35,418 bases of DNA, taken from contig CANRLQ010000001.1 of NCBI GenBank assembly GCA_947631525.1, forward strand, positions 1-35,418, written 5' to 3'. Below are positions 4,711 to 22,401 of this stretch, piece after piece; position 1 is the first letter of the stretch, and each line of letters starts with the position of its first letter. The stretch is from an uncultured Bacilli bacterium. GTDB lineage: Bacteria; Bacillota_I; Bacilli_A; RF39; UBA660. Both the position numbers and the translations under genes were made by a program. Under the pieces are notes generated by a model, which was not told where the DNA came from, searched no databases, and saw only the letters and a program-made list of their open reading frames with translations.

Positions 4711-4711
4711 T

Positions 4712-4745: not shown

Positions 4746-4770
4746 TTTTTTATTTTTGGTTATATTTTTT

Positions 4771-5127: not shown

Positions 5128-5156
5128 AATAAGCCTCCTATATAAATTATATTAGT

Positions 5157-5184: not shown

Positions 5185-5200
5185 TATTAAATTGATTTTT
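5173..5200 (-). terminator. rho-independent terminator after pilin-like gene 1
   Basis: Perfect 10-bp stem AAAAATCAAT/ATTGATTTTT with a 5-nt loop and a T-run of 8 on the minus strand. It overlaps the stop at 5199..5201. Confidence 0.55.
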
Positions 5201-5543: not shown

Positions 5544-5588
5544 AATAAACCTCCTCCATATATTAAGTGTATTATCACTTCTAATTTA

Positions 5589-5617
5589 ATGATACTTTAT
5601 TTTTAATAAAAAGTCAA
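5589..5617 (-). promoter_or_regulatory. sigma-A-type promoter (TTGACT, 17-nt spacer, TATCAT) for pilin-like gene 1
   Basis: The reverse complement of 5612..5617 is TTGACT and of 5589..5594 is TATCAT, with an exact 17-nt spacer. Confidence 0.5.
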
Positions 5618-5638
5618 TTATTTACCATAATAATTGAC
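5605..5638 (-). terminator. hairpin plus T-tract after the tadZ-like gene (probable end of the tad transcript), overlapping the next -35
   Basis: Perfect 10-bp inverted repeat (gtcaattatt at 5613..5622 and aataattgac at 5629..5638) with a 6-nt loop. On the minus strand it is followed by TTTTTATT. Confidence 0.45.
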
Positions 5639-5652
5639 ATTATTTTACATAT

Positions 5653-6636
5653 TTATGATAATCTAGTAAAACCTAATTTTATTAAAAAATCAACTAATTG
5701 TTCTTGACGACTTGCTCTTTCATCTAAAGGTGGCATATTATAAAATATTTTTACTCTAGATTCTGATTCAAAATCGTGAACATCTTTATTATTTAATAAA
5801 CTCTGATTTAAAATAACCTTTTTGTTTTTTAAATCATTTAATATTCTAGAATTTACTATCATTAATCTATTTAATTTAACCATTGAAGGTTCAATTAAAT
5901 AAATTACTTCAGTACATAATTCTTCAGCATTTTTACTATTATTAACATCTAATAGAATAATATCTTTATCAAGATTTTTATTAATAAGAGTTTTAATATT
6001 ACTATTAGTAACTGAAACTAACTCTCTATCATTAAAAAATCTAAAATCTGATTTTTCAACTTCCATAGCAACTACTGAATACTTAGTAGATAATTGTTTC
6101 TTCATCAAATACGTTAAAGTTGTAGCACCCGACTGTTTTGTAACATTTTTAATTCCTAATATTCTAGGTCCTGTTAAAGTTGGCTCACCTTCAATATATC
6201 TATCAACATAAACAGTTTCTGTTTTAACTTGCTGTGGCTGAACTGCATTTACAGGATTAATTATATGTAAATGAGCTACATCTCTATAACTATTAGGATT
6301 ATTATACAAATATAAAATACCATCAGCATTTGTAGTAAAATTATAAATACCCATCGATATTAAATTAGACATATATTGTGGTGATGTAGTATCAGATGAT
6401 TCATCTAATAACAAAATCACTTTTTCCATATCTAATGATAACGATAATTTCTGAATTGTATTAATATTTTTATAATCTTTTAGTGCTGTTATATCTAAAA
6501 TCATTCTTTGAAAAAAGAAATTTTTAAAATTTGCAACTAATTCATCAACATCAAACTGCCCATTCAACTCTTTTATTATTTCAATATCAAGGCTTTCAAG
6601 CATAGATTGATATTTGTTTGAAACAATTACATTCAC
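5653..6636 (-). CDS. TadZ/CpaE-like protein (N-terminal pseudo-receiver-like region plus degenerate ParA/MinD fold)
   Basis: 327 aa. RILGIKNVTKQSGATTLTYLMKKQL sits where ParA/MinD proteins carry KGGxGKTT, but the P-loop lysine is missing. DIILLDVNN is Walker-B-like. Its position at the end of the Tad gene set matches tadZ. Confidence 0.4.
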   Translation of the reverse strand: MNVIVSNKYQSMLESLDIEIIKELNGQFDVDELVANFKNFFFQRMILDITALKDYKNINTIQKLSLSLDMEKVILLLDESSDTTSPQYMSNLISMGIYNFTTNADGILYLYNNPNSYRDVAHLHIINPVNAVQPQQVKTETVYVDRYIEGEPTLTGPRILGIKNVTKQSGATTLTYLMKKQLSTKYSVVAMEVEKSDFRFFNDRELVSVTNSNIKTLINKNLDKDIILLDVNNSKNAEELCTEVIYLIEPSMVKLNRLMIVNSRILNDLKNKKVILNQSLLNNKDVHDFESESRVKIFYNMPPLDERASRQEQLVDFLIKLGFTRLS

Positions 6637-6653: not shown

Positions 6654-7109
6654 TTAAGCATTTCCATTAAAATAACCAAAACTTTTAGTTTCACCCTTTA
6701 CAGGAAATTCAACTGCAGACCCAATAACTGGAAATTCAAAATGCATATAAGTTATAACTTTGTAATAATTATCATTACCATAAGTATGTTTTATTACACA
6801 ATAATTATATCCTGCAGTGGTAGTAATATTTGCACCATAAACTATAGTTTCGTTTGCTTTACCATTTGTTACGCATTCCTTATTTCCTGCACCTGCTCCA
6901 ACTTGATAACCAACCTCTTTTAAATAACTATCTATTTCATCTTTTAAACTATCATTCCAACCATTATTTTCTTCAATAATATTTACAATTTTATTTTTAA
7001 CTTTATAAGCTTTAGAATAACTAATTGAACCAACAAAGAAAATCATTATAACACCAATGATTGACGCAATCATCCCCATAACTAACGAATTTCCTAATGC
7101 CTCTCTCAT
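6654..7109 (-). CDS. pseudopilin-like protein (TadE/TadF position), paralogue of 7122..7541
   Basis: 151 aa with N-terminus MREALG followed by the hydrophobic NSLVMGMIASIIGVIMIFFVG. It shares SYSKAYKVKNKI with the neighbour's SYYKAYKVNNAI and has two conserved Cys. Confidence 0.5.
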   Translation of the reverse strand: MREALGNSLVMGMIASIIGVIMIFFVGSISYSKAYKVKNKIVNIIEENNGWNDSLKDEIDSYLKEVGYQVGAGAGNKECVTNGKANETIVYGANITTTAGYNYCVIKHTYGNDNYYKVITYMHFEFPVIGSAVEFPVKGETKSFGYFNGNA

Positions 7110-7121
7110 ATTCTAATACCT

Positions 7122-7541
7122 CTATTCATTAAAATAATATATATTTTCTGTTGTAGATTTGATTGGAATTTTTAAAAACAAATCTCCAAGTGGAATATCT
7201 ATATTTAAATAAGTTGTTATCTTATATTTATAATAATTATTTTTTTCTTTTCGCGTATCTAACAATTCAACACAATAATCAAAATCTGTATCATTTTTTG
7301 TGTATTCATCATTAGAACATTCATGTTTACCTTTTCTATAACCTAAACTTTCTAATTTAGTACTTATTTCTTTTTTAGCTAAACTATTATATCCTTCATA
7401 TTTTTCAATACTACTAGATATAGCATTGTTAACTTTATAAGCTTTATAATAACTTAAAGTGGCAGCTAAAAAAGCAAATGTTACCACTATAAAAATTGTT
7501 ATTATATTTATCGTAGCTGTAAATCCTATACCTTGCTTCAT
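7122..7541 (-). CDS. pseudopilin-like protein (TadE/TadF position)
   Basis: 139 aa with N-terminus MKQGIG followed by FTATINIITIFIVVTFAFLAA. It lies directly downstream of the Flp-like gene. Confidence 0.5.
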   Translation of the reverse strand: MKQGIGFTATINIITIFIVVTFAFLAATLSYYKAYKVNNAISSSIEKYEGYNSLAKKEISTKLESLGYRKGKHECSNDEYTKNDTDFDYCVELLDTRKEKNNYYKYKITTYLNIDIPLGDLFLKIPIKSTTENIYYFNE

Positions 7542-7564
7542 TAACTACCTCCCTATTCACATTA

Positions 7565-7798
7565 TTATTTTTTGGCTCTTTCTTGATTTTTACAAGAAGC
7601 ATAGTCTAAAGTATTTGCATTATCTGCACTTACTTGACATTTTCCACCCTTCCAGTATCCACCGCAAGCACTACAAGCCGCACTATTCTCTGTACTAGCC
7701 ATCATACTATTTACAATAATAGTACCTATTCCTAAAACTATTGCAATCAAAACAATTGTGATTACTGTCATATTTGCTTCTCCAGCTGCTTCTTTCAT
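7565..7798 (-). CDS. Flp-like major pilin candidate
   Basis: 77 aa. MKEAAG is followed by the hydrophobic EANMTVITIVLIAIVLGIGTIIV and a short Cys-rich head with 4 Cys. It has its own consensus promoter and follows tadC. It lacks the canonical Flp EY motif. Confidence 0.55.
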   Translation of the reverse strand: MKEAAGEANMTVITIVLIAIVLGIGTIIVNSMMASTENSAACSACGGYWKGGKCQVSADNANTLDYASCKNQERAKK

Positions 7799-7890
7799 TT
7801 TATCACTTTCCTTTCATATAAATATATAATAATTATCGTCATATTTTTATTGAAGTACAATTATCCTCTTTACTATATGACTACACTATT

Positions 7891-7919
7891 ATTATAACTC
7901 CATTTATTCTTTTTATCAA
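7891..7919 (-). promoter_or_regulatory. near-consensus sigma-A promoter (TTGATA, 17-nt spacer, TATAAT) for the Flp-like pilin gene
   Basis: The reverse complement of 7914..7919 is TTGATA and of 7891..7896 is TATAAT, with an exact 17-nt spacer. It starts 20 nt after the tadC stop and leaves a leader of about 85 nt before ATG 7798. Confidence 0.6.
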
Positions 7920-7938
7920 TATTTAAGTGTAAAATACT

Positions 7939-8727
7939 TTACATTCCCATCATACTCATCATTGCAATCATTAATAAGACTAATATTCCGCCACCAGTTG
8001 AGAATAACATCATCATTGTTTTATGTTCCATTGTTTCCAAACGATTTTTATATTTATCCTCACGCATTTTATTTTGTAATGTTGAAACACTCTTAGCAAA
8101 CATAACTAATTGTTCATGTTTATTTTCTTGAGCTCCTAAACTTAAACGATATAGAAGTCTCATCATACGCATAGAATCTCTAACAGGATACTCTTTAGCA
8201 AAATCCATATATGGTTCTACTGTAGAATCTCCAGCCTCAATACGTTCTATTAGTCTTGTAAGTCCAGATTTAAATATTTCTGGTGCTGTTTCAACACTTT
8301 TTGCTAATGCTACTGGAACAGTATAATGTTGAATTAAAATTTCCAAACTTTTTAGATAGTATGGTAACATTTGATTTATTTTATTTAAGTTACTTTTATA
8401 ATAAGCTTTTAAATTCATATATGGAATTTTAAAAACCAAATAACCTATTACTATAGAAAATATAACATTAATAAAGCTTAGATTAGAAAACATTAATATA
8501 ATTAAGAAACATCCAATTATAACTAGGGCATTTCTAATTCTTATTGAAAATAATTTATTAATATCTAAATCTTCACTACCATATTTAACATTAAGTAAAA
8601 ATGCATAATCATCTTCCATTAAAAATCTAAAATATGGTTCAATATCTCCTATAAATTTTTTTGAATCAATCATTCTATTGTAATTTAGTACAAATAATAT
8701 TATAGCTGCTATAAATATAAATTCCAT
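7939..8727 (-). CDS. tadC: TadC-like pilus platform membrane protein (GspF/T2SSF-like)
   Basis: 262 aa with TM helices at both ends. The central soluble region LPYYLKSLEILIQHYTVPVALAKSVETAPEIFKSGLTRLIERIEAGDS fits the T2SSF-type helical domain. The start is coupled to tadB by TAATG. Confidence 0.55.
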   Translation of the reverse strand: MEFIFIAAIILFVLNYNRMIDSKKFIGDIEPYFRFLMEDDYAFLLNVKYGSEDLDINKLFSIRIRNALVIIGCFLIILMFSNLSFINVIFSIVIGYLVFKIPYMNLKAYYKSNLNKINQMLPYYLKSLEILIQHYTVPVALAKSVETAPEIFKSGLTRLIERIEAGDSTVEPYMDFAKEYPVRDSMRMMRLLYRLSLGAQENKHEQLVMFAKSVSTLQNKMREDKYKNRLETMEHKTMMMLFSTGGGILVLLMIAMMSMMGM

Positions 8728-9629
8728 TATTCAGCCCCCACATTCTCATTATAATATTTTTCTCCATTAAGTAAGAACAATGTATTAATAATTATAATAG
8801 CGTGTAATAATAATTGAACAAATAAATTATCTAAAAGTGCTATATAAGATTCTACACCTAATAAAAATTGTACTAACATTACCATTAAATATAAAATTAT
8901 ACCAAATTGAAGAAATTTCTTATGGAAATTTGCTCTATCAATTCTATCACGATAAACTGCTTCAACAAGCATGTCTATATCCTGACTCATATTTTCTAAA
9001 GCATCTCCAGAATCTTTAGAACCTTCATTAGTAATTTGTAAGAATAATTGATGTGTATTTTTTACAATATAATAATCATATTTTTGATTAAAAAAGTTAA
9101 TTGACTCTTCTATTGTACCATTGTCATATGCTAAATCAATCATTAATTTAACATCACTTTTTACAGGATCTTCTAATACATCTGATTCATAAACACCTTC
9201 TAAGGCTTTAACAAACGCTTGGGTTGTCCCAAATTCCATTATAACATTGGTTGTATAAACTTGAATTTGTTCAAAGATAAATTCACTATATACTCTTTTA
9301 CATCTAAGATATGTAAGGTATGGAATTACTGCAACAGCAATTACTGCATATATAAATGAAACTATTAAACTATAAAAATATAAATAAGTTATAACAGCTG
9401 CACCAACTGCAAATACAACTATTTGTATAGTATATTGTCTTGTAGTATATTCTTGACCTAAATCTTTTACTTTTTCTCTTATTTCTTTAAAAGAATAAGG
9501 AGCATATTTATCATATATATTACCCGCTGTTTTTGAAATATATTTGTAAACACTTTCACCACTACTGTTTCGATAAGCAATTACAAATATAACAACAAAG
9601 GCAATTATTAAAAATACTATTAATTCCAA
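8727..9629 (-). CDS. tadB: TadB-like pilus platform membrane protein (GspF/T2SSF-like)
   Basis: 300 aa with an N-terminal TM, paired TMs, a soluble helical domain and C-terminal TMs. It lies immediately downstream of the ATPase. Confidence 0.55.
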   Translation of the reverse strand: MELIVFLIIAFVVIFVIAYRNSSGESVYKYISKTAGNIYDKYAPYSFKEIREKVKDLGQEYTTRQYTIQIVVFAVGAAVITYLYFYSLIVSFIYAVIAVAVIPYLTYLRCKRVYSEFIFEQIQVYTTNVIMEFGTTQAFVKALEGVYESDVLEDPVKSDVKLMIDLAYDNGTIEESINFFNQKYDYYIVKNTHQLFLQITNEGSKDSGDALENMSQDIDMLVEAVYRDRIDRANFHKKFLQFGIILYLMVMLVQFLLGVESYIALLDNLFVQLLLHAIIIINTLFLLNGEKYYNENVGAE

Positions 9630-9641
9630 TTTATTCCTCCT

Positions 9642-10637
9642 TTATTCTATATTTCCTACATTATTTTGCATGTTAGGATTATTTGTTTTGTTAATATAAT
9701 TTTGATTACTAATTTGACCATTTTGATTAATGCCATTTGGGTTAATACCGACATTTAATTTATTAGGTTGATTAGTTGACGTATTAATTCCTGTATTATT
9801 TAAATTATTAATATTACTTACTTGTTGCCCAACATTAATTTTTTGATTTGGATTTAAAGCTTTACTTTGATTTACTGTTTGTCCAGTATTTAAAGGTTGT
9901 CTATTGTTAACAATTTGTCCAACATTAACACCTTGAACACTTTGCAAACTTTGTGATGATTTTGTTTCACCTGATTTAATAACATCTTTAGGTAAAACTA
10001 CTCCTTGAGCATCCAAATAATCAATTAAATATTTTGATGGGCTTTTTCTAACCACATGTCCTGTTGTTGACTTTTTATAAATTGTATTTGTTCTTGCTTC
10101 GTTATCTTCAGTAACATAAAATTCTGTAACCTCAGCAATTTCACGTTTAAAACTTCTTGTTACTTTATCTTGATAAGCTCTGATATATACTCCAATTTGT
10201 ATATATCTATAAATTGATTTTAAAAATTGTTCTATATCTTGATTTGTTTCAAGTAAACTATACATACGGTTAGGTATAGATGATGCTTTATCAGCATGAA
10301 TTGTTGATAAAATATAATGTCCAGAAGATATAGAGTTACGTACTGCCATAACGGCCTCTGCACTACGAACTTCGGATAGTAATATCCATTTTGGATTTTG
10401 TCTCATACATGTTACTAAAACATCTGTATAAGAAGCTATATTATTTGTTTTCATAGCTACTATATCTCTATGTGGAAATATTCTATCTAAGTGAAGTTCC
10501 AAAGTATCTTCTATTGTAATTAATTTTTCATCTTCTCTTGTATGTGCTGCTAAATATTTAACAAACTCGGTTTTACCACTACCTGTTTCTCCACATACAA
10601 TTATGTTGCAATGTCCTAAAACACATTGAATCAACAT
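9642..10637 (-). CDS. tadA: TadA/CpaF/VirB11-family secretion ATPase, catalytic part, with a ~110-aa N/Q-rich tail
   Basis: Walker A is CGETGSGKT; other family motifs are ITIEDTLEL, ILLSEVRSAEA and STIHA. The frame is closed by a TAG at 10647..10649, four codons upstream of the ATG, so the N-domain lies in another frame. Confidence 0.8.
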   Translation of the reverse strand: MLIQCVLGHCNIIVCGETGSGKTEFVKYLAAHTREDEKLITIEDTLELHLDRIFPHRDIVAMKTNNIASYTDVLVTCMRQNPKWILLSEVRSAEAVMAVRNSISSGHYILSTIHADKASSIPNRMYSLLETNQDIEQFLKSIYRYIQIGVYIRAYQDKVTRSFKREIAEVTEFYVTEDNEARTNTIYKKSTTGHVVRKSPSKYLIDYLDAQGVVLPKDVIKSGETKSSQSLQSVQGVNVGQIVNNRQPLNTGQTVNQSKALNPNQKINVGQQVSNINNLNNTGINTSTNQPNKLNVGINPNGINQNGQISNQNYINKTNNPNMQNNVGNIE

Positions 10638-11001
10638 ATTGCTCTTCTAATAATTTCCCCTTTTCCAATCTTATTTTAGCAGGTGTTTTACGTATAACGG
10701 CAGCTATACCATTTTTAGCTATTGAATCATGAACGAAATTAAGACGAAGCTCTGCTCCTTCAGCATCCAAAAATGGTGAGGCCATATTAAACGATTTACC
10801 CATGCTATTGGCACATTGAAATGCTAACTTTTCCATAAATGCATTATTTACATTTGGATTTTCAACTCTAAAAAGTCCTTTTGATAAAGTTCTTAACCAA
10901 AGTTGGCCTCCATTGCTATATGAAATATCGGTAACATCATCACTTTGTAAATATTCTTTAAGTGGCCCAAAATCAATTTGGGCAAACATTGAATCAAACA
11001 T
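10579..11001 (-). CDS. tadA: TadA/CpaF/VirB11-family ATPase, N-terminal domain (separated from the catalytic part by a frameshift)
   Basis: VTDISYSNGGQLWL...LRLNFVHDSIAKNGIAAVIRK is the N-domain pattern of T2SSE/VirB11 ATPases. It ends in the out-of-frame tail CFRTLQHNCMWRNR and overlaps the catalytic ORF by 59 nt. Confidence 0.7.
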   Translation of the reverse strand: MFDSMFAQIDFGPLKEYLQSDDVTDISYSNGGQLWLRTLSKGLFRVENPNVNNAFMEKLAFQCANSMGKSFNMASPFLDAEGAELRLNFVHDSIAKNGIAAVIRKTPAKIRLEKGKLLEEQYVDSMCFRTLQHNCMWRNR

Positions 11002-11834
11002 TAATCTTCTTTATCTGTGTTAGTAGTTGTATCAGTTGTATTTGTGTTATCAATTTCATCATTAGCTACTGTATTAGCATTTATGAAATCTTTAAGTGTT
11101 TGAGAACTTACAGCTGTTTCTCCTTCTTCACTTGCAACTGTAGCACCATGTGGTACAGGGAATAATTCAACAGAATAAGAGCTCATATAACTTGCTTTTC
11201 TAAGTAAAATATTAATTTCAGGTACAACACCAAATATTAAATATGCTGGTGTTCTAGATTCTGCACTATTTTCAAATACATTTTTACCTGATGAATCTTT
11301 TACAGCTAAAATTTTAATATTTTCAACTAATTTACCAACCATAATTTTTCCACTTTTGTTTACGGCTTTCATGTAAATGTCAATGTAATTACCAGTATAC
11401 ATTGAGTTACCATAAGTAGTTGCTGTTGTAACTGGGAAGTTATATGGTACTTCACCTTCTTCAACTTCAACAAATGCTGAATCTGGTAATTCTTTTTCTT
11501 CAACAACTGTTTCATTGTAGAATAAACTTCCTGTTGGTATTACAGTATTATAATTACTATACTTACCAATTACCTTATTTGAATCTACATAAACTTCTCC
11601 TTTTTGAAGTACAATTGGTGCAACATCGATATAAGTTATCATATCAGGTGTTATCTTTGTTCTTGGTTGTATTGTTGTTGCTGCTACAGGTATATTTTTA
11701 ACAGGACTTACTTGTTTATTTATTTGATAACGATATCCTAAAAATAATACAAGAATAATTGCCAATACCCCTATGATTGTTACAGTATTTTTGTTTTTGA
11801 AAAAATTTTGTAACGTAATTTTTAAATTATTCAT
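11001..11834 (-). CDS. cpaB: CpaB/RcpC-like Flp pilus assembly protein
   Basis: 277 aa with an N-terminal TM. IPVAATTIQPRTKITPDMITYIDV is SAF-like. The C-terminal pattern IKILAVKD...PAYLIFGVVPEINILLRKASY matches CpaB. It is coupled to tadA by TAATG. Confidence 0.6.
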   Translation of the reverse strand: MNNLKITLQNFFKNKNTVTIIGVLAIILVLFLGYRYQINKQVSPVKNIPVAATTIQPRTKITPDMITYIDVAPIVLQKGEVYVDSNKVIGKYSNYNTVIPTGSLFYNETVVEEKELPDSAFVEVEEGEVPYNFPVTTATTYGNSMYTGNYIDIYMKAVNKSGKIMVGKLVENIKILAVKDSSGKNVFENSAESRTPAYLIFGVVPEINILLRKASYMSSYSVELFPVPHGATVASEEGETAVSSQTLKDFINANTVANDEIDNTNTTDTTTNTDKED

Positions 11835-11884: not shown

Positions 11885-12286
11885 CTAATATGGTGTTTCT
11901 AATATTGCATCTATTTTGTTGTCAATTGTAAAGTCAACAACTTCATTTGCAACAGTAGAAGTTTGTTTTGATCTCACCCTTAGACTTACTTTAGGTGGAT
12001 ATTCACTAATATCATAAATATCTATAACATATGTATTTGATAAAGATGCATTTTCTGCAAATCTTCTAACAAATATCTCTGCAAATTTTTCTCCATCTAT
12101 ACTAATATTCCCTGTTTTTGCATATTCAGCTTGATCAATAGCATCATACATTGCTGCTTCAGTTGTTTCTCTAAGCAATGTATAATTTTGCTGATCTGTA
12201 TTAGTAATATTTTGGAAGAAATATATAAAAACTATAGATGTAACTCCGAGCATTAAAATCATGCTCCCCCAAAATGATTCTTTCAT
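11885..12286 (-). CDS. 133-aa prepilin-like / N-terminally anchored protein, cassette A
   Basis: MKESFWG is followed by SMILMLGVTSIVFIYFF. By eye it is about two-thirds identical to 18564..18965. It follows the giant protein gene with an 18-nt gap. Confidence 0.6.
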   Translation of the reverse strand: MKESFWGSMILMLGVTSIVFIYFFQNITNTDQQNYTLLRETTEAAMYDAIDQAEYAKTGNISIDGEKFAEIFVRRFAENASLSNTYVIDIYDISEYPPKVSLRVRSKQTSTVANEVVDFTIDNKIDAILETPY

Positions 12287-12304: not shown

Positions 12305-15300
12305 TTATTTCCCATTAGGATATGTAGCTAAAGTTGATGATGAAGAATATTTTTCATAACAACTTCTAAGAGTTGAAGTAGTATCTGTGCTTGAACAATT
12401 TCCTCCAACTAATATACCTTTATATTGTCCACGTAAGAAATTACTACTAACGCAAGTGTTGTCATCACATGTATAATCACTTTTTGTTGGTGTATATGAA
12501 TGTTCTTTATTATAATTTCTTATGCTTTTAATATCTTCTGGAGTTAAATTAATTGTGTATAATATATTTCCATCATCTTTATATAAATTATCAGCTTCTA
12601 CAGTTCCATTATTTGACAATCTTGTATGAATTTTATTTTGAACCCACCATAAATTTCGCCAATTATAACCTGGAAAACGACCTATATTCGTAGTATCATA
12701 TGAAGTTACTTTACCTGAATAAGTCATACCTGGAAATGGATCTTTTAAATCTATAACTCTATATACTATTTTTTTACCTCCATATGGGCAAGTTTGTTCT
12801 TCACAAACAGCTAACGCTTCAGCAATTTGTGATTCATTTGCTGTTGAAGTAGTAAGTCCTTTCTTAGCTAATTCTAATTCTAAACAATATTCTGGATTAC
12901 CCATATCTTCACACTCACCTTCTGGTGGACATCCAGGACATCTATATCTAGTTTCACATATTTCACCATTAGCACATACTTTTTTCCATATAACAGCTTT
13001 TGTTCCCTCTGGTTGTATTGATTTCCAACTACAACTATCTGTATTACATACACTATTACACATTTTATTGTAACAATATTCAAAATCATCAGAAGCATAA
13101 TTTTGATATTTATCTATTTCTTTGCTAAGATTTTTAGATTTTTCTTCAGCTTGTTTTAAAGTTACTGTATTTCCTCTAACATTTAAATTAATTTTTCCTT
13201 TTTCTTGTTCTACTTCGTCATTAATTCTTTGAATTAATTTATTTACTTCATCTTTTAATTTATCATAATCGTTAAGACTTATTCGTGCTTCCTCATTTCT
13301 AACTGTAACATATTCAAGTGATGAAACTTTAATTTGTTTTTTACTTTCAAATTCAGAAACAGATTTTTTTAATTTTTCTAATTTTTGCTTATTTTTTTCA
13401 TTTCTTTCGCTTTGATAACTAGTTTTACATATGCTGCTTTCTATTCTATCTGTAATATTTTCTAATGTTAAATTATTATGAGTTCTATCTTCTATACAAT
13501 CTTCATATTCTTTTATTTCAGTTTCTAATTTTGTTATTTCTTTTATTGCATCGTTATAAGACATTGTTTCATAATCAACTTGTATTTCTCTTTTTGATTT
13601 CAGTTTTTCGATATCTTTTTCTAATTTTTCAATATCTTTATTTAATGTTTCAATAACATTTTTAGCTTGATTAATTGATGAAATAACAATACGATGAACA
13701 TAATCTGTCTGGATGGTATAACGAAATTCATTTGATGAGTTAGTATTTCTTATTGCTTGATCATAGTCATTTTTTAAATTTTGTGTAGAACTTAATAAAT
13801 TTCTACTATTAAAGCAATCTGTTAAATCAACTGTTTGATGATTATATTCACATGTACAATGTTTATAATTTTCATTTTCATATTGTTTTTTATATTCTTC
13901 AAATTCTTCACTTGATAAATAACATAATTTAGTTTGAGCATCTAAGCAAGCAAGATTTGAATTACCACCATTATTGCCAGGCTCCCCACTACATAATAAT
14001 AGCACATCAAGATTTTCTCCTGCCATAGGTGAAGAACTTGGACAAATACAATTATCTTCTCCTCCTACTTCATAAGAACAAGTATAATCAGTTATCTTAC
14101 TTCCAACATTATTATCTATACCTAAATTTAAATTTAATTTCAAATAATATTTACCACTAGCATTTTTAGAAATTGCTAATGAACCTTCTTTTCTATTTTG
14201 AATTAAAGGAAGAACTGCATTAGCATCGTTATTTGTAGAAAAGAATCTACCAGTTTGATCAATCCAAGAATTCAAATTTGCTGGTAATTTAAACCAAGAT
14301 GTTTGTGACATAGAAATTGATGAAGTACCTACTGAGATATTATTTTGTTTCGTAGAACTTAAAACTATTGGACTATTTCCATATTGTTCATCAGTATAAT
14401 TAACTGTAGCACCATTTTGATAGCTACTGTAATAGTCATTAACTAAATTTGTATTTGAAACACTTCCACAAGTAGCCGTAGTTCCCACTGGATCTGGATT
14501 AACAATTGTACAGCTAGTATTGATTGTTATCTTCATTCTATAAGAAGATAATTTATCGTTCCAATTACTAGTTGGCCATTCAAATGAAGTACCAGGTTTC
14601 ATTTGTTTTTTTACATTACCTGGTAATATCAGAGTAAAAGTATCTTTACAATAAACATTACATCCACCAGTTGTTGTACTAACAAATCGTCCATAATAAT
14701 TTGAACGTTGGCCTAAACTTTCATCACAAGAATTATTATCTGTTTTTACAGTATAAACAGACTCAAGAACCATTTTTTTATTATAGTCATCTGTACACTT
14801 TAAATTATTTGTTTTAGTTTGAATTGAATTAGACATACAGCAAGAATTACAATAAACATTTGTATATTGACTTACTATTCCATCTAATCTTCCACTTAAT
14901 GTTGCATTTGTTGGAGATGTTAATGAATTATCATACCAAAACTTAATATAATTTTTTATATCATAATTTTGTACTTTACCAACACAGTCAACAGGTTGAC
15001 ATGAATATTGAAAACAATTGTTTTCATATCGACATAAATCTTCAGCTTGTGCATCACTATATTTTTTATCCGTATATTTTTTTATACAATCTGTAATCTT
15101 AACTTGCCCTCCAGTTATAGGATTAGTACAATACCTATTTGCTGTACAATATAAATCTTTACAAGTAGATTTTGCATTTGCCTCACTTTGACCTGCATCA
15201 ACATAATTTTCAACACAAGTAGTTATATCCATTCCCTTATTTATTGCTGAATCATCAGGACATAAAATTTTATCAGGTGGTGGTATAGCAGCTGATATAT

Positions 15301-16021
15301 CTATAATATTCATACCACATCCCACATCATAATCTTTAGATGTCTCTAAATTATTTTCATTACTACAAAATTCCTTAGTTTTATATTTAATTCCAACATC
15401 TGTAAAATTAGTATAAAAAGCCGCTAACATATCTGAATATCTACTCCTACGTTGTTCTCCACCTTTAACCCTAATTTTTGTAACATTTTTTATTGTGTCA
15501 TAATAAATCGTACCTGAATTACCATTCATAACATATGTAACAACAGGTTCAATAACAATACGATATCCTTTTTTAGCATGTGGTGATTCCTTTTTAGCTG
15601 GTTCACTCTTTTTATAACTAGATTCTCCAGTTTTTTTGAACCATTTTTTGGCATTTTTCCAATCATTCTTTTTAAACCATTCTTTTATTTTCTTGCTTGC
15701 TTCTGCATATTCGGTATTACCAACACCTTTAAGTACCCCACTACTTTTATCTAATATATTTTTATCACCCCAGTTTTTATTAGACCAATATTCACTATAA
15801 TATTTTTTATAACTAGCACCATTTATCCAATATAGTGTAACCTTAACAGTTAAGTGATTGGCATTATTGTACATACAAGGGCCAGAAACACTAGAACAAC
15901 TAGCTCCACTTCCACTTACAACGTCACTACCTTCACCATTATATATCGATGCTGAAACATTAGTATTGCCTATAAAAGCTAATAAAATAAATACAAATAC
16001 AAATTTACATATTTTTTTCAT
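12305..16021 (-). CDS. giant secreted cysteine-rich protein A (1238 aa), function unknown, adhesin or pilus-associated candidate
   Basis: Sec signal MKKICKFVFVFILLAFIGNTNVSA. I hand-counted about 51 Cys. It shares blocks with 18980..22333, for example YYGRFVSTTTGGCNVYCKDTFTLILPGNV, YTCSYEV and IVYRVIDLKDPFPG...RFPGYNW. Confidence 0.8.
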   Translation of the reverse strand: MKKICKFVFVFILLAFIGNTNVSASIYNGEGSDVVSGSGASCSSVSGPCMYNNANHLTVKVTLYWINGASYKKYYSEYWSNKNWGDKNILDKSSGVLKGVGNTEYAEASKKIKEWFKKNDWKNAKKWFKKTGESSYKKSEPAKKESPHAKKGYRIVIEPVVTYVMNGNSGTIYYDTIKNVTKIRVKGGEQRRSRYSDMLAAFYTNFTDVGIKYKTKEFCSNENNLETSKDYDVGCGMNIIDISAAIPPPDKILCPDDSAINKGMDITTCVENYVDAGQSEANAKSTCKDLYCTANRYCTNPITGGQVKITDCIKKYTDKKYSDAQAEDLCRYENNCFQYSCQPVDCVGKVQNYDIKNYIKFWYDNSLTSPTNATLSGRLDGIVSQYTNVYCNSCCMSNSIQTKTNNLKCTDDYNKKMVLESVYTVKTDNNSCDESLGQRSNYYGRFVSTTTGGCNVYCKDTFTLILPGNVKKQMKPGTSFEWPTSNWNDKLSSYRMKITINTSCTIVNPDPVGTTATCGSVSNTNLVNDYYSSYQNGATVNYTDEQYGNSPIVLSSTKQNNISVGTSSISMSQTSWFKLPANLNSWIDQTGRFFSTNNDANAVLPLIQNRKEGSLAISKNASGKYYLKLNLNLGIDNNVGSKITDYTCSYEVGGEDNCICPSSSPMAGENLDVLLLCSGEPGNNGGNSNLACLDAQTKLCYLSSEEFEEYKKQYENENYKHCTCEYNHQTVDLTDCFNSRNLLSSTQNLKNDYDQAIRNTNSSNEFRYTIQTDYVHRIVISSINQAKNVIETLNKDIEKLEKDIEKLKSKREIQVDYETMSYNDAIKEITKLETEIKEYEDCIEDRTHNNLTLENITDRIESSICKTSYQSERNEKNKQKLEKLKKSVSEFESKKQIKVSSLEYVTVRNEEARISLNDYDKLKDEVNKLIQRINDEVEQEKGKINLNVRGNTVTLKQAEEKSKNLSKEIDKYQNYASDDFEYCYNKMCNSVCNTDSCSWKSIQPEGTKAVIWKKVCANGEICETRYRCPGCPPEGECEDMGNPEYCLELELAKKGLTTSTANESQIAEALAVCEEQTCPYGGKKIVYRVIDLKDPFPGMTYSGKVTSYDTTNIGRFPGYNWRNLWWVQNKIHTRLSNNGTVEADNLYKDDGNILYTINLTPEDIKSIRNYNKEHSYTPTKSDYTCDDNTCVSSNFLRGQYKGILVGGNCSSTDTTSTLRSCYEKYSSSSTLATYPNGK

Positions 16022-16035: not shown

Positions 16036-16689
16036 CTATTTTAATTCATTTTTCTTATCATCTCTATATATAATTATACCACATACTACTATTATTAATG
16101 GTAAGATTATATAATAATATCTTTTATAACTATTTGTAATAATTTCAACCAATCTAGCCAATCCCTGTTTTTCAGCAACTGCTTCTTTTTCTTGTCTATT
16201 CTTTTCTAGTAAGTATTCATTTACTTTCTTTTTAAATTCAGCATCGGTAATGTTTAAATTTATCCATTTTCGACAATATTTATATTCTTGAATATCTTTA
16301 CATAATTCACTTTTATAGTATTTATTATAACTAGGTGTTTTAACATAAATAGTTCTTAACGAATCACTTATACAAACAAAACCTTTTGAATAAACTTCAT
16401 ATCGATACTCTTTGTTAGGTTTTAATCCTTTAACAGTAACATCTTTGTTTGAAGAATATATCTTACCATTTGAAGTATCTTTTATTAACAATTTTCCATT
16501 TAAATTAGTAAAAGTTATATCAAATGTAACATTATTATTAATTTCATTATAAGTATAACTATAAGCTACATTAGCAGATAATTTCTGAATTTCAGATATT
16601 TGTGAATCTAAACAATTTGCTGCTTTAATTTGATATGGAAAAAGTACTAATATAATTAATAGGAAAGAATTAACAAATATTCTTCTCAC
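16036..16689 (-). CDS. secreted FN3-like protein with a C-terminal TM anchor, cassette A
   Basis: I prefer the GTG start at 16689 (RBS GGAGGTG, and the -10 at 16722 leaves no room for the track ATG). It has a signal peptide and a TM anchor YYYIILPLIIVVCGIIIY. VTVKGLKPNKEYRYEVYS is an FN3-type strand signature. It is a paralogue of 23092..23739. Confidence 0.6.
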   Translation of the reverse strand: MRRIFVNSFLLIILVLFPYQIKAANCLDSQISEIQKLSANVAYSYTYNEINNNVTFDITFTNLNGKLLIKDTSNGKIYSSNKDVTVKGLKPNKEYRYEVYSKGFVCISDSLRTIYVKTPSYNKYYKSELCKDIQEYKYCRKWINLNITDAEFKKKVNEYLLEKNRQEKEAVAEKQGLARLVEIITNSYKRYYYIILPLIIVVCGIIIYRDDKKNELK

Positions 16690-16721
16690 AAATTGCACCT
16701 CCATACTCTACCTTAATATAG

Positions 16722-16762: not shown

Positions 16763-18337
16763 TTATTTTAATTTATATCTGTAAATATTATTTCTAATAT
16801 TAAAAATTAAAGTAATGTTATTTGCTTTTTCTATTTCTTTATAAATTTCAAAATATAAATTTGAATCATTAACCATTTTAGGTTTAATAGGTTTGATTGT
16901 TTGATTCATAATTTTAGTTTCACCATTTATTGTATACTCTATACTACCATATTGATATACTAAATTTTCCAATTTTGAAAAGGTTAGCGGTAAATCTAAT
17001 GAATCAGAATCTACCTCACCATCTAATTTTAAGATTGTTTTTTCATAATTATCTGTATAACTTGGTACTAAATATTCATGTGAATTATAGATTATATTAT
17101 TTATATAATAATTATATCCAACATCCATTCTAGGTGAAATACCATATGAATCTATATATATTTTAAGATCTTTTACCAATTGATTATTTATTTCTAAAGT
17201 TTTACCAATACTTGATTCCTTTTTGTTATTAGAATTAAAGCTTTGAGGTTTAATTCTAATATTAATATAATTATTATTATAATTAGCAAATTTTAAAGTC
17301 ATCTTTTTATTTTTGTATTTTTTTGGTATTTCATATACAAGTAAATATTCGTTTTCTGTTTGACCTTTTATTTCTTCATTATTATAAGTATTTCCAATAT
17401 CAATCAAGTCTTTTTTATATTTTGTTGTATGAACAAAATTAATATCATTTACATTAAGAACAAATCGCTCAGTATTTAAACTACCTCTTTTATTACTATT
17501 GTTTTTTAATTTGAATTTAACGGTAACTATATAATTATCTGTTATTTTTCTATTTTTGTAATCAACATTTGTTATATAAACTTGTTGAGGTGTAAAATTA
17601 AGTAAATCACAATTAACCGATTCACCTAATTTATGAGCTCTATTTTTAACAAAGAAATTAAAATAGATAAAAATTGATAAAACAATTATGGTAAACAACA
17701 CAATAATATTGATAATAAGTTTATTTTCTTTATAAATATATTTAGCATTTCTAAGTTGTCTTTTTATATTTCTTTTTGTTTTATTTGAATCATAGTCTAA
17801 CTCAAATTCAAATTCTTCATTATCTTTTTCTGATATTTCAAAATTCATTTCTTTATCAAAGTCAAATTTTTTAACATCAAATCCTAATGCTCTTACTACA
17901 AAGAAAATAGAACTAATTGTTTGAAGAAGAAATAATACCAAACATATATCATCTATAATTTTTATAACTCTTATATCTACAACACCAATTTCAAGTGTTT
18001 TACATACAGAATATATATATAAATATATAAGTAAAATAAAAACATAAATTATTATATTGAAAATATAATATTTAATTGGTTTTTCTTTCCAATGTAACAA
18101 ATATATAATTATTGATATTAAGATTATTACAAATATAGGAATGATAAATATTAATGAATTAAATAATTGTTTAGTTAAATTAAATACTGATATAATTGAA
18201 CTAGATTGTAAATATTCATTAAAAAAATTTAAAATTGTATTTGTTTTTGTTAATAGATAAACGCTTAATATAGTAAGTATTAAATGAATTATTTTAAAAT
18301 ATTTTATTAAAAATTTATAAGGTTTTCTTAATACCAC
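16763..18337 (-). CDS. 5-TM membrane protein with an acidic cytoplasmic loop and a ~295-aa ectodomain, cassette A
   Basis: 524 aa with a GTG start and RBS AGGAGGG. I predict four N-terminal TMs, the loop EEFEFELDYD, a fifth TM and a beta-rich C-terminal domain. It is a paralogue of 23834..25417. Confidence 0.65.
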   Translation of the reverse strand: MVLRKPYKFLIKYFKIIHLILTILSVYLLTKTNTILNFFNEYLQSSSIISVFNLTKQLFNSLIFIIPIFVIILISIIIYLLHWKEKPIKYYIFNIIIYVFILLIYLYIYSVCKTLEIGVVDIRVIKIIDDICLVLFLLQTISSIFFVVRALGFDVKKFDFDKEMNFEISEKDNEEFEFELDYDSNKTKRNIKRQLRNAKYIYKENKLIINIIVLFTIIVLSIFIYFNFFVKNRAHKLGESVNCDLLNFTPQQVYITNVDYKNRKITDNYIVTVKFKLKNNSNKRGSLNTERFVLNVNDINFVHTTKYKKDLIDIGNTYNNEEIKGQTENEYLLVYEIPKKYKNKKMTLKFANYNNNYINIRIKPQSFNSNNKKESSIGKTLEINNQLVKDLKIYIDSYGISPRMDVGYNYYINNIIYNSHEYLVPSYTDNYEKTILKLDGEVDSDSLDLPLTFSKLENLVYQYGSIEYTINGETKIMNQTIKPIKPKMVNDSNLYFEIYKEIEKANNITLIFNIRNNIYRYKLK

Positions 18338-18979: not shown

Positions 18980-21900
18980 TTAATTATAACAATTATAAAA
19001 ATCTTTTTCTTTAGATGTACTACTCAATCCATTACAATTACCATTTTTATTATTAAGATTTTTTGATAGTATATTGATTTTATAATCTGTTAATTCACCA
19101 TGTAACAATTTACTTATACAAGCTGAAGAATCACTACTATTTAAACATTTTAAGTCAAAATTATCATAACTATTCTTTTCATTGTATTTTCTTATTGTTT
19201 TTATATCTTTTGAAGTAAGTTTTATTGTATAAAGAGGATTTTTACTATAAATTTTGCTTCCTTTACTATTTCTAGAATTTAATATTTTTTCCTTTACATA
19301 TTGTGAATCCCAGTTACTTCCAGGATATCTTCCATACAAGCTTGTATTACTAAACTTATTTGTTTTTCCATTTGTTTGTAACATTCCAGGAAATGGATTA
19401 TCTAAATCAATTGTTCTAAAGACAATACTGCTATTATAATTTGTTGAACATATAGCAGGTTCACATTCTCTTAAAACTTTATATAGATTTGCTCTATCAA
19501 TCGAATTAATATTTTTAGCTAAATTATTATCAGGCATATATCCATAATTTCTAAGTTTATTTATAACACAAATTTTAGGGTCTCCTGTTAATATTTTGTC
19601 ATTTGGGCAAAAGAAATTAACATCGCAGAAAGTCAAATTTCCATCACAATATTTATATTTAATATTCAATCTATCAGTAGCAACTGCTTCATTTTCCCAT
19701 TTACAATCACCGATGCATGTATTTTCACAAACAGGAATTGTTATATCAGAATCACAATAAGTTGCCTGTAAATCTGCACAGCTTTTATCACTACAACTAA
19801 ATGGTAAAATTTTGTCATAGTTCTTAGTACCAGATGGACACTTACAAACATCGGTTGTTGTAATATATGGTGCTACTTCATAATTACATGTATAATTACC
19901 TTGATTTACAATATCACCAATAATATTTGATGTACCCAAGTTAAAAACCTTTAATTTTAATTCATAAATAGTTGGAAAATCATCAGTAGAAGTTGATATA
20001 ACACCTTTACCTCTATCAAAGGTATTTATGTTTGGATAAGTAAGTATTTCACCACTTATTCTATTATAATATCTATTTACATTTTCATTCAATTTATATG
20101 TTATAACTCTATTTACAGAAACATTTCTATCTGCTGTTGTAAAACCATTCCATCCATCTGTAAAATTAGTTAAATCTTTCGCAATATCCAAAGAACCTTT
20201 ATACCAATGTTTTGATTTTTCCTCATTTACTGTACTACCTGCTTCTATTTGAACCGAAGGATTTTGATTGTTATTGAAGAAATCGCTAGGAGTAAATTTA
20301 TAACTACGACAATCTCCATCAGCTGTACTTCCTTCTCTAATGATAATCTTACATTTTTCTTTTATATTTATTTGAAGTGGATATGTTCCATTTACTGTTG
20401 GCCATTCAAAATAATTTCCACGTGGTATTATTTTAGAAACATTACCTGGAAAACTTAGATTAACTGTCTCTAAACAATATATATCACAATTACCAATTGT
20501 TTTTACATGTCTACCATTATATTTTGATGAACCTTCCTCACATGTATTATCTTCCACTTTTACTGATTCTTCATTATATGAAGCTTCATTATTCTTATCA
20601 GTATTAACACAAACTAATGAATTTGTAAGTGACTTATTACTTAATTTAACATCAAAACAACTTATTGGGCAATATCTTTGCTTACATTCCAAACTTGCTT
20701 CATTTATATCTACAACATCATCATCTGTTGAAGCATTAAGCTTATTTTTTATACAATCTTGATAATCCTTATCAGTTCTTCTATGATATTTACCATAATC
20801 ATCAATCGTTGCACATGGTGCATAACAATTATCCACTTTACACATATCAAGTGCTAATTGTGGTTCTATACCTTTTTTAATATTATCTTTATAACAATCA
20901 CTTATATTAGTTTTATTATTTGGATCTGAAGCTACAGCTTCATCATTCATACCATAAACACAAGATTTACTTTCTGTACAAGTATCGGCTATACATATAT
21001 TCTTAGCATCATCAAAACTAGGTTCCTTAGAACAACATTGTCCATTTTTTGCCATAAATGCCCCTGTACATTTATTAGTATAGTTTTGATTAACTAGAAA
21101 GTATCCTCCTTTGCAAGATGGATTCCAATCCGCAGTTGTATCATTTATTGTACACTTAGTATTATTATCAGTCATATGATAACCAGCTGCACAATATAAT
21201 TTTGTATTATCATATGCATAACAATATGGATAAGCTCCATTTTTACCAACTGCATATCCTGGTGGACAAACAAATTGGTCAGTTCTATCCAGTATACATG
21301 TACGTGTCCCTGAGACAAAAGTATAACCTTGTGGACAATTAGGCTTTACCCTACAATAACCTGTATCTGAATTATATTCATATCCAGATGGGCATTTTCT
21401 TTTTGAAGCATTATCTTTATAACATGTTGTTCCACTTTTTTGCCATCCACTCGAGCAAGAATATGTACATGAAAGTTTAGTAGCATCCCAACTTGTTGAA
21501 TATGTTGTATGTGAACAACATCTATTATTAGAATTATCACCAGAATTATGACATAACTTTCTAGATACAGATCCCCCATTATATCCCGCTGCCGCACAAT
21601 TAGCATAAACTCCTGCTGAAACTGAATGATATGTTGTAGATGATGTTGTTTGATAACAGCTATTACCACTTTTGTTCCATCCACTTGCACATGAGCATGT
21701 TTGAGTAGCATTTTTTGTTTTTCTACAAGTTTTTGCAGAACTATTCCAAGAAAATCCATCACCATTACATGTTGGCTGTACTCTACACCAAGTATTATTG
21801 CTATTCCAGCTAGTTCCACTAGGACAAGTAGCTGTACTAGAATATCTACATGCTGTACCAAGATATTGACCACCACTATTACATGATACTAAATTATTTG

Positions 21901-22333
21901 TAATTAAACATGTCCCACCACCATTTACAGAAGCAAAAGAACCTGCACTACAATTTATATTAGTTTTACTTACACCAACACAAGTAGTTCCACTAAGTAC
22001 ATAAGCAGTTGATGGACAAAAATATTCTTTATCATACATAGTTACTGGTGGATTATTAAATTCTTCATCAACACAACTAGTTATATTTAATTCCGATTTT
22101 GTTTGTGTATCAGTACAAAATATTTGTGAAGTTTGTTCACATTCTTCAGAAGAGTCTCCTAACCATATTAGACCTACACCATAACCTTTACTGCTATCAA
22201 TCAAATTATCTAAAGAAGCAACCCCACTAACTGAACTTAAAGAAAATGAAGAAAATTGTGTTTTTTTAGAATCGTAATACATATAATGTGAAATAGCATC
22301 TACATTTAATTCAAAGTCACTTTCTTTCATCAA
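18980..22333 (-). CDS. giant cysteine-rich protein B, main body (the frame stays open upstream to 22432; its N-terminus is in ORF 22402..23082)
   Basis: 1117 aa from the track, with no signal peptide. I hand-counted about 71 Cys. It contains 13 C-x-x-G-aromatic...C repeats plus the shared blocks YNGRHVKTIGNCDIYCLETVNLSFPGNV, YTCNYEV and IVFRTIDLDNPFPG...RYPGSNW. Confidence 0.75.
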   Translation of the reverse strand: MMKESDFELNVDAISHYMYYDSKKTQFSSFSLSSVSGVASLDNLIDSSKGYGVGLIWLGDSSEECEQTSQIFCTDTQTKSELNITSCVDEEFNNPPVTMYDKEYFCPSTAYVLSGTTCVGVSKTNINCSAGSFASVNGGGTCLITNNLVSCNSGGQYLGTACRYSSTATCPSGTSWNSNNTWCRVQPTCNGDGFSWNSSAKTCRKTKNATQTCSCASGWNKSGNSCYQTTSSTTYHSVSAGVYANCAAAGYNGGSVSRKLCHNSGDNSNNRCCSHTTYSTSWDATKLSCTYSCSSGWQKSGTTCYKDNASKRKCPSGYEYNSDTGYCRVKPNCPQGYTFVSGTRTCILDRTDQFVCPPGYAVGKNGAYPYCYAYDNTKLYCAAGYHMTDNNTKCTINDTTADWNPSCKGGYFLVNQNYTNKCTGAFMAKNGQCCSKEPSFDDAKNICIADTCTESKSCVYGMNDEAVASDPNNKTNISDCYKDNIKKGIEPQLALDMCKVDNCYAPCATIDDYGKYHRRTDKDYQDCIKNKLNASTDDDVVDINEASLECKQRYCPISCFDVKLSNKSLTNSLVCVNTDKNNEASYNEESVKVEDNTCEEGSSKYNGRHVKTIGNCDIYCLETVNLSFPGNVSKIIPRGNYFEWPTVNGTYPLQINIKEKCKIIIREGSTADGDCRSYKFTPSDFFNNNQNPSVQIEAGSTVNEEKSKHWYKGSLDIAKDLTNFTDGWNGFTTADRNVSVNRVITYKLNENVNRYYNRISGEILTYPNINTFDRGKGVISTSTDDFPTIYELKLKVFNLGTSNIIGDIVNQGNYTCNYEVAPYITTTDVCKCPSGTKNYDKILPFSCSDKSCADLQATYCDSDITIPVCENTCIGDCKWENEAVATDRLNIKYKYCDGNLTFCDVNFFCPNDKILTGDPKICVINKLRNYGYMPDNNLAKNINSIDRANLYKVLRECEPAICSTNYNSSIVFRTIDLDNPFPGMLQTNGKTNKFSNTSLYGRYPGSNWDSQYVKEKILNSRNSKGSKIYSKNPLYTIKLTSKDIKTIRKYNEKNSYDNFDLKCLNSSDSSACISKLLHGELTDYKINILSKNLNNKNGNCNGLSSTSKEKDFYNCYN
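21026..22018 (-). repeat. coding array of about 13 cysteine-bounded C-x-x-G-[YWF] modules (EGF / ephrin-receptor-like in look)
   Basis: Examples are CPSGTSWNSNNTWC, CNGDGFSWNSSAKTC, CASGWNKSGNSC, CSSGWQKSGTTC, CPSGYEYNSDTGYC, CPQGYTFVSGTRTC, CPPGYAVGKNGAYPYC, CAAGYHMTDNNTKC and CKGGYFLVNQNYTNKC. The array is absent from paralogue A. Confidence 0.7.
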
Positions 22334-22401
22334 ATAAGCTAATTCAGTTGGTGTACCAAAATAATATTTTTTTTCGGAATTAGAACTACTATTATATCCG
22401 A

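Follow-up and report, generated by a model that had tools for sequence, protein, structure and literature searches.

In this study, a cysteine-rich protein and its gene neighborhood were analyzed in a 35,418-nucleotide stretch of DNA from an uncultured Bacilli bacterium (assembly GCA_947631525.1, contig CANRLQ010000001.1); this whole stretch is called the window. The gene of the protein, gene A, lies within a pilus-type locus, directly upstream of a gene for a pilin-like DUF5411 protein. This agreed with an earlier description made without database searches (the sequence-only reading), in which surface or pilus fractions had been named as a place to look for the product. The same reading had claimed a giant Sec-type protein of 1238 amino acids (aa) with 51 Cys, 50 of them in the mature chain. 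The open reading frame (ORF) and the Cys count were consistent with this claim: Cys made up 4.1% of the residues, and only C5 lay in the signal peptide. The word "giant" is generous for 1238 aa. The product was an exact match to P0001 in the protein collection.

The N-terminus of the product (MKKICKFVFVFILLAFIGNTNVSAS) showed the n/h/c organization typical of Sec signal peptides, with an AXA-like site and without a prepilin leader. When the whole protein was scanned in 19-residue windows, the signal peptide was the sole hydrophobic stretch. From these features, the product was inferred to be Sec-exported. The LP.TG motif was absent from the protein by pattern search, and the sortase-anchor test found neither LPXTG nor a hydrophobic segment beyond the signal peptide. 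Pfam gave no family match for gene A, including SLH and choline-binding repeats, which agreed with the earlier statement that LPXTG, SLH, and choline-binding motifs are missing. The 3.7-kb frame stayed open in DNA of about 27% G+C. Because of this long open frame and the clear homologs described below, a chance ORF was rejected. A promoter and terminator scan was uninformative in the AT-rich window (133 sites vs. 139 expected).

Domain boundaries were obtained from alignments and from the AlphaFold model of P0002, the closest homolog. P0002 has 992 aa; its identity to gene A is 40–47%, with the value varying by alignment, and the two proteins are collinear except that P0002 has no coiled coil. 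With 73 sequences, the P0002 model reached a predicted local distance difference test score (pLDDT) of 75.2, with values above 90 in the central domain. The model of gene A aa 39–1238, made with 7 sequences, was unusable (pLDDT 42.8). Column conservation was counted over 112 aligned family members, and identities are given relative to gene A.

The C-terminal domain, of about 140 aa and mixed alpha/beta in the P0002 model, was the most conserved region, with 32 columns conserved at ≥90% and a mean identity of 0.34. It was also the best conserved block in comparison with paralog B, the second Cys-rich protein of the window (31% identity). The sequence-only reading had quoted this block, which begins at aa 1085, as the best conserved one and as unrecognized; both statements stood, since the domain had no PDB or Pfam relative. 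The central region had 13 columns at ≥90% and a mean identity of 0.22, and its C409, C454, C458, C504, C648, C658, and C660 were kept in ≥93% of the members. The N-terminal domain was predicted in the P0002 model as a mixture of strands and helices with pLDDT 80–95. Its conservation was poor, with no column at ≥90% and a mean identity of 0.12. All family blocks were present in gene A: the C-terminal signature, C..YC.E...LPGN...F.WPT, and Y.C.Y....C.CP.

The small recurring module described earlier was found at the quoted places, aa 264–292 and aa 307–336. In its strict form, [IL]T.C[VI]...C...C, it occurred twice in gene A vs. 0.08 times expected in shuffles, and at least two copies occurred in 0.3% of the shuffles. 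Looser copies were located at aa 731–736 and aa 1044–1078. The recurrence therefore stood, but the strict copies make up a lineage-specific insert at aa 254–346. This insert was predicted as helical hairpins in P0002 and was common only to the nearest relatives; just 5% of its columns were occupied in at least half of the aligned members. The Trp/Lys patch (KEWFKK...) was likewise present at aa 113–130, where it had been quoted, but it is the form that a conserved helix pair takes in this lineage and not a separate motif.

The coiled-coil insert of gene A was missing from the homologs and had the top helical-composition score of 134 members. It appeared as long helices in the gene A model of low overall pLDDT, and in NCBIfam it gave only coiled-coil noise of the SMC/TrlF type, which spanned aa 715–984. 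Inserts differed in kind and position between members. Some other members, up to 2044 aa long, had long CPSG..G.C hairpin arrays; an array of this kind, CPSGTELKNGKCY, is carried by P0029. Gene A itself had only two C..G......C-type hairpins.

Conservation of Cys was investigated in the same alignment. Twenty-one of gene A's Cys were conserved in ≥88% of the 112 members, and in an alignment of 40 members, 21 columns were invariant, 12 of them Cys columns. In the knot region, C983, C988, C1028, C1046, C1073, and C1078 were conserved in ≥88%, and Cys 992, 997, 1016, and 1022 were gained or lost together (r ≥ 0.9). Co-occurrence of Cys mostly followed clades, and disulfide partners were not assignable from it. 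The pattern of conserved Cys fits structural disulfides or metal sites.

The family was searched exhaustively with HMMER, using a 7-sequence profile against 1.84 billion cluster representatives (clusters defined at 50% identity). There were 1015 representatives at E ≤ 1e-3, 725 at E ≤ 1e-10, and 196 at E ≤ 1e-30. Gene A matched the profile at E 2.9e-283, the profile having been built partly from gene A. A word-indexed homolog search found few relatives, five with the full protein and eight fragments with the C-terminal profile, and the family therefore wrongly looked rare. Among 160 family sequences, the length ranged from 124 to 2044 aa and the median Cys content was 4.3%. A hydrophobic N-terminus was present in 130 of the 134 full-length members.

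All carriers among GTDB representatives were uncultured gut metagenome-assembled genomes (MAGs), from human, Hadza, rabbit, and water deer samples. Depositors had labeled carriers mostly as Bacilli, Firmicutes, Lactobacillales, or Tenericutes, with one short contig labeled Muribaculaceae. That the relatives are gut Bacilli MAGs is the sole basis for the earlier label "anaerobic Firmicute".

Known families and structures were sought widely. NCBIfam, PHROGs, and PADLOC gave no family match for gene A, paralog B, or the module partners, beyond the coiled-coil noise in gene A. A Pfam scan of 40 diverse members found no recurring domain and three unrelated single matches. Sequence-profile searches of the PDB with the C-terminal domain, the full-length protein, the DUF5411 protein, and the two polytopic proteins gave nothing below E 0.3. 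Foldseek found no match for the P0002 model in the PDB or BFVD at E ≤ 0.001, a whole-chain query that may miss weak likeness of a single domain. No confident assignment to an adhesin, toxin, or S-layer family already described, the outcome named earlier as a refutation, was thus obtained with Pfam, NCBIfam, PHROGs, PADLOC, the PDB, or Foldseek. No match to gene A was found by megablast or tblastn among 72,556 plasmids and 50,697 phage records, and the C-terminal motif had no relative in IMG/VR viral contigs. A phage tail fiber was rejected, as phage genes and phage matches were both absent.

Gene A belongs to a four-gene module with the order membrane protein of about 525 aa, protein of about 222 aa, Cys-rich protein, and DUF5411 protein of 133 aa. 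The 222-aa partner gave a weak fn3 match (E 0.0018) and adjoins the Cys-rich gene in most loci. The 524-aa partner, for which Pfam and NCBIfam gave no family match, heads the module in most complete loci. The whole module is tandemly duplicated on the reverse strand at 11885–25417. Identity between the two copies was 70% for DUF5411, 51% for the 527-aa protein, 41% for the 222-aa protein, and 28–31% for the Cys-rich protein. The second giant protein of the sequence-only reading, paralog B, is not intact. Its ...YILVEPLI* continues as NLIGYNSS...YYFGT in another frame, which opens at 22432 and matches RIVIEPVVTYVMNGNSGTIYYDT of gene A.

The DUF5411 protein (M[KR]ESFWG), the Flp-like pilin, and the two minor-pilin-like proteins all start with an M[KR]E..G leader, after which comes a hydrophobic helix of about 20 residues; this layout was kept across all loci. 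The four leaders end in Gly and lack the canonical Flp G/XXXXEY motif. The leader suggests prepilin-type processing after this Gly. The DUF5411 protein is probably a minor pilin, because a leader followed by a hydrophobic helix is the layout of a prepilin.

The locus forms one co-directional cluster from about 25417 to the left edge of the window, and its right flank consists of housekeeping genes (sirtuin, rumA, gerA/C/B, and rluB). The VirB4-like gene is split into a 182-aa ORF at 518–1066 and a second frame running off the left edge. No relaxase or coupling protein was visible within the window. The coordinates of the features are listed in Table 1.

Table 1. Genes and protein regions of the pilus-type locus, by position in the window
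Feature	Position	Strand	Remarks
T4SS-type (type IV secretion system-type) gene block	1..6636	(-)	includes 327-aa, 353-aa secreted, 165-aa, and 105-aa proteins
VirB4/TraC-like N-terminus	1-1066	(-)	frameshifted, cut by window end; PF11130 TraC_F_IV, E 7.9e-7, two frames joined
TrbL/VirB6-like protein	2023-3609	(-)	TrbL_4, E 2.2e-6
Two VirB2-like small membrane proteins	5199-5543, 4771-5127	(-)	T4SS_pilin weak, E 0.06
Tad-like filament gene block	6654..11834	(-)
Two minor-pilin-like proteins	7122-7541, 6654-7109	(-)	pilin-like leaders
Flp-like pilin, 77 aa	7565-7798	(-)	pilin-like leader
Two polytopic proteins	8727-9629, 7939-8727	(-)	TadB/C label from position only
T2SSE (CpaF/TadA-type) ATPase	9642-11001	(-)	frameshift-split; T2SSE, E 1.5e-24
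CpaB/RcpC-like protein	11001-11834	(-)	RcpC weak; unmarked match in homolog L001
DUF5411 protein, 133 aa, probable minor pilin	11885..12286	(-)	PF17424, E 1.5e-48; directly downstream of gene A
Gene A, Cys-rich secreted protein	12305..16021	(-)	ORF and translation; 1238 aa, 51 Cys
Gene A: conserved C-terminal domain, aa 1085-1225	12347..12769	(-)	IVYR.IDL..PFPG ... R.PG.NW ... PLY.I.LTP..IK.IR.YN ... 4 Cys
Gene A: Cys-rich knot region, aa ~981-1084	12770..13081	(-)	Cys conservation; includes EYCLELELAKKGL...CEEQTC
Gene A: coiled-coil insert, aa ~745-980	13082..13789	(-)	K/E-rich, 2 Cys; specific to gene A
Gene A: Cys-rich linker, aa 661-744
Gene A: central all-beta domain(s), aa ~409-660	14042..14797	(-)	P0002 model pLDDT >90; ends in Y.C.Y....C.CP
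Gene A: two helical Cys modules, aa 254-346	14984..15262	(-)	regular expression; lineage-specific insert
Gene A: N-terminal alpha/beta domain, aa ~25-245	15287..15949	(-)	aligned blocks; KGYRIVIEP, GCGMNIIDIS, W/K helix pair
Gene A: signal peptide, aa 1-24	15950..16021	(-)	MKKICKFVFVFILLAFIGNTNVSA, cleaved before S; site judged by eye
222-aa module partner	16036..16704	(-)	signal peptide, FN3-like beta domain, C-terminal membrane anchor
524-aa module partner	16763..18337	(-)	polytopic N-terminal membrane part and extracellular domain
Second DUF5411 protein, 133 aa	18564..18965	(-)	70% identical to 11885-12286
Paralog B, frameshift-split	18980..23082	(-)	ORF 22402-23082 (226 aa, signal peptide) and ORF 18980-22333 (1117 aa, 71 Cys)
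Second copies of module partners, 223 aa and 527 aa	23092..25417	(-)	41% and 51% identical to first copies

The conservation of the locus was investigated in homologous loci. The module order recurred in L001–L005, L007, L008, L012, and L014–L017, and L018 had the same genes permuted. DUF5411 was followed by the CpaB-like protein and the T2SSE ATPase, and then, in longer loci, by VirB2/VirB6/VirB4-type genes. This arrangement reached members as distant as E 6e-51. In most loci DUF5411 follows the last Cys-rich gene; in L018 only module partners lie between them. L002 has the same rumA/gerA flank, so the site is syntenic. Just upstream of the homologous module in L018, a phage-CI/HTH_3-type repressor gene was observed at 157–894; some of the loci may thus lie on mobile elements.

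Identity between the window and other loci was 57–86% for the machinery (57–82% for the two polytopic proteins) and 25–43%, over local matches, for the Cys-rich proteins. The number of Cys-rich gene copies per locus varied from 1 to 3. Because of this lower identity and variable copy number, the Cys-rich protein can be described as a fast-evolving, expandable element of a conserved machine.

The results suggested, with a probability of about 50%, that gene A encodes a Sec-exported, non-pilin, probably disulfide-stabilized surface adhesin that works with the adjacent pilus-type machine. This reading was favored because of the Sec signal without an anchor, the conserved C-terminal domain, the variable N-terminal parts and inserts, and the fixed place beside the pilin-like gene. 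In the proposed mechanism, the protein would be exported via Sec and its signal peptide removed. About 21 family-conserved Cys would form disulfides or possibly bind metal, and in this way the folds of the central beta domains, of the Cys-knot region, and of the C-terminal domain would be fixed. As conservation and gene order suggest, the C-terminal domain would then dock the protein to a partner that is itself conserved. The leading candidate is the minor-pilin-like DUF5411 protein, in which case the gene A product would sit at the tip of the pilus; alternative candidates are the 222-aa and 524-aa membrane proteins, which occur as a pair. More speculatively, the N-terminal domain and the lineage-specific inserts would face outward, and the target would differ between strains. 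The outward inserts would be the two helical Cys modules and a coiled-coil stalk of about 235 aa in gene A, and long CPSG..G.C hairpin arrays in relatives. Host mucus or glycans may be the target, or another cell contacted by the adjacent VirB2/VirB4/VirB6-type apparatus.

Several points weighed against the adhesin assignment. No structural match links gene A to adhesion or to a pilus, and the best Foldseek matches of P0002 were generic beta-sandwiches (E 0.015–0.03) with negligible TM-scores. The docking partner was guessed from the order of the genes, and disulfide bonding is a prediction. The even Cys number, which the sequence-only reading had remarked on, carries no weight, as an even count was found in only 64% of the family members. 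The Tad identity of the locus was only partly confirmed: the T2SSE ATPase family also contains VirB11, the polytopic proteins at the TadB/TadC position gave no T2SSF, other Pfam, or PDB match, and no prepilin peptidase was visible within the window. Distant members (about 25% identical) were found away from pilus genes at L011 3219–6311, L006 7214–10366, and L009 3930–6935, and the L011 gene sits between dacA and murG-murB-ftsQ. In addition, the ATPase, the VirB4-like gene, and paralog B are frameshifted, and the apparatus may be non-functional in this genome.

The frameshifts also bear on a possibility that was considered rather unlikely, namely that gene A in this genome is an intact-looking relic of a decaying locus without current function. 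The ATPase is shifted at about 10633–10640 into two overlapping ORFs (its homologs are single ORFs of 397–474 aa), the VirB4-like gene near 518, and paralog B near 22405–22432. These three frameshifts fall within 25 kb and none is at a long homopolymer, and the 10-kb housekeeping flank had no frameshifts. However, they could be assembly errors, the genes are intact in homologous loci, and the open 3.7-kb ORF at about 27% G+C points to selection that was recent or is still acting. Decay would concern the state of this copy and not the role of the family.

A pilus-independent coat or matrix protein of the cell surface was judged unlikely for gene A. Its C-terminal domain would be a new domain for non-covalent binding to the wall or to membrane proteins, with a role like that of SLH, WxL, and CWB2 domains, and linkage to the pilus genes would reflect co-regulation only. 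A protein without LPXTG or a membrane anchor needs some non-covalent anchor. The C-terminal domain is the most conserved one, and a ligand pocket could be built from its invariant residues (R, D, PFPG, R, NW, and Y). Orphan copies occur among the cell-wall genes of L011 (dacA, murG, murB, and ftsQ), where pilus genes are not nearby, and the module always has two membrane proteins with extracellular domains able to hold the gene A product. However, Pfam found no SLH, CWB2, choline-binding, LysM, or WxL domain in gene A, paralog B, or 40 members, and no likeness to a known wall-binding domain was found. The strict adjacency to DUF5411 and the ATPase in most loci, distant members included, also counts against this reading.

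It was considered quite improbable that gene A encodes a substrate secreted by the neighboring machine (for example, an effector, a toxin, or a bacteriocin-like protein). The pilus-type system would work in the manner of a type II secretion pseudopilus and move the protein across the wall, or other cells would receive it through the VirB-type part. In favor of this, the locus includes both a T2SSE ATPase with pilin-like proteins and genes of the VirB4/VirB6 type, and related DUF5411/CpaF operons were termed "secretion-related" by Miller et al. 2022 (PMC9523054). The protein is also large, variable, and multi-copy, like polymorphic toxins. However, polymorphic toxins vary at the toxic C-terminus, and here the C-terminus is the most conserved part. 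The gene that follows is the conserved DUF5411 gene and not a small variable immunity-type gene, no toxin or enzyme domain was found by Pfam in 40 diverse members, and gene A has its own Sec signal peptide. A polymorphic toxin was rejected on the first three of these grounds. A Cys-rich spore-surface protein (exosporium or coat) like clostridial CsxA or CdeC was rejected as highly improbable: gerA/gerB/gerC-type germination genes are nearby and spore envelopes typically hold Cys-rich proteins (PMC7333573), but gene A has a Sec signal peptide, which coat proteins made in the mother cell lack, the linkage in most loci is to pilus and not sporulation genes, and relatives occur in MAGs labeled Tenericutes by depositors.

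The adhesin reading was compared with known systems. PilY1 of Pseudomonas and PilC of Neisseria are non-pilin tip adhesins of type IVa pili, of about 1000–1200 aa, with a Sec signal and genes among those of minor pilins. In these proteins, docking to minor pilins is the role of a conserved C-terminal domain, and a variable N-terminal part does the binding. Gene A resembled them in size, Sec signal peptide, adjacent pilin-like gene, and the pattern of conserved C-terminal and variable N-terminal parts. However, the PilY1/PilC beta-propeller domain was not found by Pfam in gene A, paralog B, or 40 members (E ≤ 0.01) or by Foldseek in the PDB, a vWA domain was likewise missing from the Pfam results, and Pfam gave no TadE/Tad (PF07811/PF13400) pilin-like segment or TadG vWA match in gene A. 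Its C-terminal part of about 140 aa is mixed alpha/beta and not a propeller of about 500 aa, and no structural match was found. Gene A also differs in its extreme Cys content, its monoderm host, and its Tad-like rather than type IVa machine.

In the R64 (IncI) thin pilus, a type IVb pilus, pilus genes lie beside a conjugative T4SS, and the hypervariable PilV is thought to choose the partner cell. The window likewise has VirB2/VirB6/VirB4-type genes after the pilus-type genes, and the element that varies and occurs in several copies is the Cys-rich protein. However, PilV is a minor pilin of about 430–470 aa whose C-terminus is varied by a shufflon, whereas gene A is a non-pilin with a constant C-terminus and varies through gene duplication and inserts. 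Because gene A lacked the features that define PilY1/PilC and PilV, its likeness to them appears to be functional only, and by sequence and fold it can be placed in neither family.

A broader and distinctly less probable interpretation was also considered. The Cys-rich proteins would be interchangeable target-recognition heads of an undescribed hybrid machine, in which a Tad-like filament and a VirB2/VirB4/VirB6-type channel are joined genetically at one conserved site on the chromosome of uncultured gut Bacilli. This machine would be a Gram-positive counterpart of R64 thin-pilus/PilV, for cell contact and possibly DNA or protein transfer. If so, these proteins would clearly exemplify exoproteins of gut Firmicutes with many disulfide bonds, which would imply an unrecognized extracytoplasmic oxidative-folding route.

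PrgB/aggregation substance belongs to the large secreted surface proteins that are encoded with T4SS genes and mediate cell-cell contact. PrgB is LPXTG-anchored and Cys-poor, with polymer-adhesin and Ig-like domains, all of which gene A lacks. Some family members resemble EGF/furin-like arrays and Giardia VSP-type proteins in their C..G......C hairpin arrays, with one weak cEGF match (E 0.0034). However, no family match was significant, the proteins are bacterial, and their overall architecture is different. Miller, Stern & Burstein 2022 (PMC9523054) reported DUF5411/CpaF/PilC operons in gut Clostridia as an uncharacterized "secretion-related" system. The window shares with these operons a DUF5411 gene and a CpaF-type ATPase gene in one operon, a Gram-positive gut host, and a large surface-type protein. 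In those operons, however, the large protein is described as having remote internalin-B-like homology and not a Cys-rich architecture, the hosts are Roseburia, Ruminococcus, and Eubacterium, and VirB-type genes were not reported.

A non-pilin adhesin serving a pilus-type machine is a known kind of protein. The family, its fold (as far as Foldseek tells), the extreme Cys content in a Firmicute exoprotein, and the Tad-like/VirB-type locus are undescribed so far. Aerobic Firmicutes have on average about 0.5 Cys per exported protein, and 70% of these proteins have none, while anaerobic Firmicutes are less strict, with 33% having none (Daniels et al. 2010, PMC2823432). Against this background, an exoprotein with 50 Cys, about 21 of them conserved, is an outlier and raises the question of how it folds. 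The family comprises at least 1000 clusters at 50% identity without Pfam, NCBIfam, or structural coverage, and within a conserved surface machine of uncultured Bacilli from the guts of humans, rabbits, and ruminants, it is the component that varies most. If gene A encodes the adhesin of that machine, it probably governs the host surfaces or partner cells with which these bacteria make contact and would be a candidate determinant of colonization or gene exchange.

Minor features of the machinery genes were also observed. Cys occurred in other predicted extracellular parts, with 4 in the 77-aa pilin, 5 in 114 and 5 in 118 residues of the VirB2-like proteins, and 5 in the 222-aa protein. Predicted cytoplasmic or membrane-embedded machinery mostly had about 0–1% Cys, and the split ATPase had 1–2%. 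The ATPase ORF at 9642–10637 ended in a low-complexity, N/Q-rich tail of about 110 aa (NNRQPLNTGQTVNQ...NQNYINKTNN), and its homologs have tails of different sequence.

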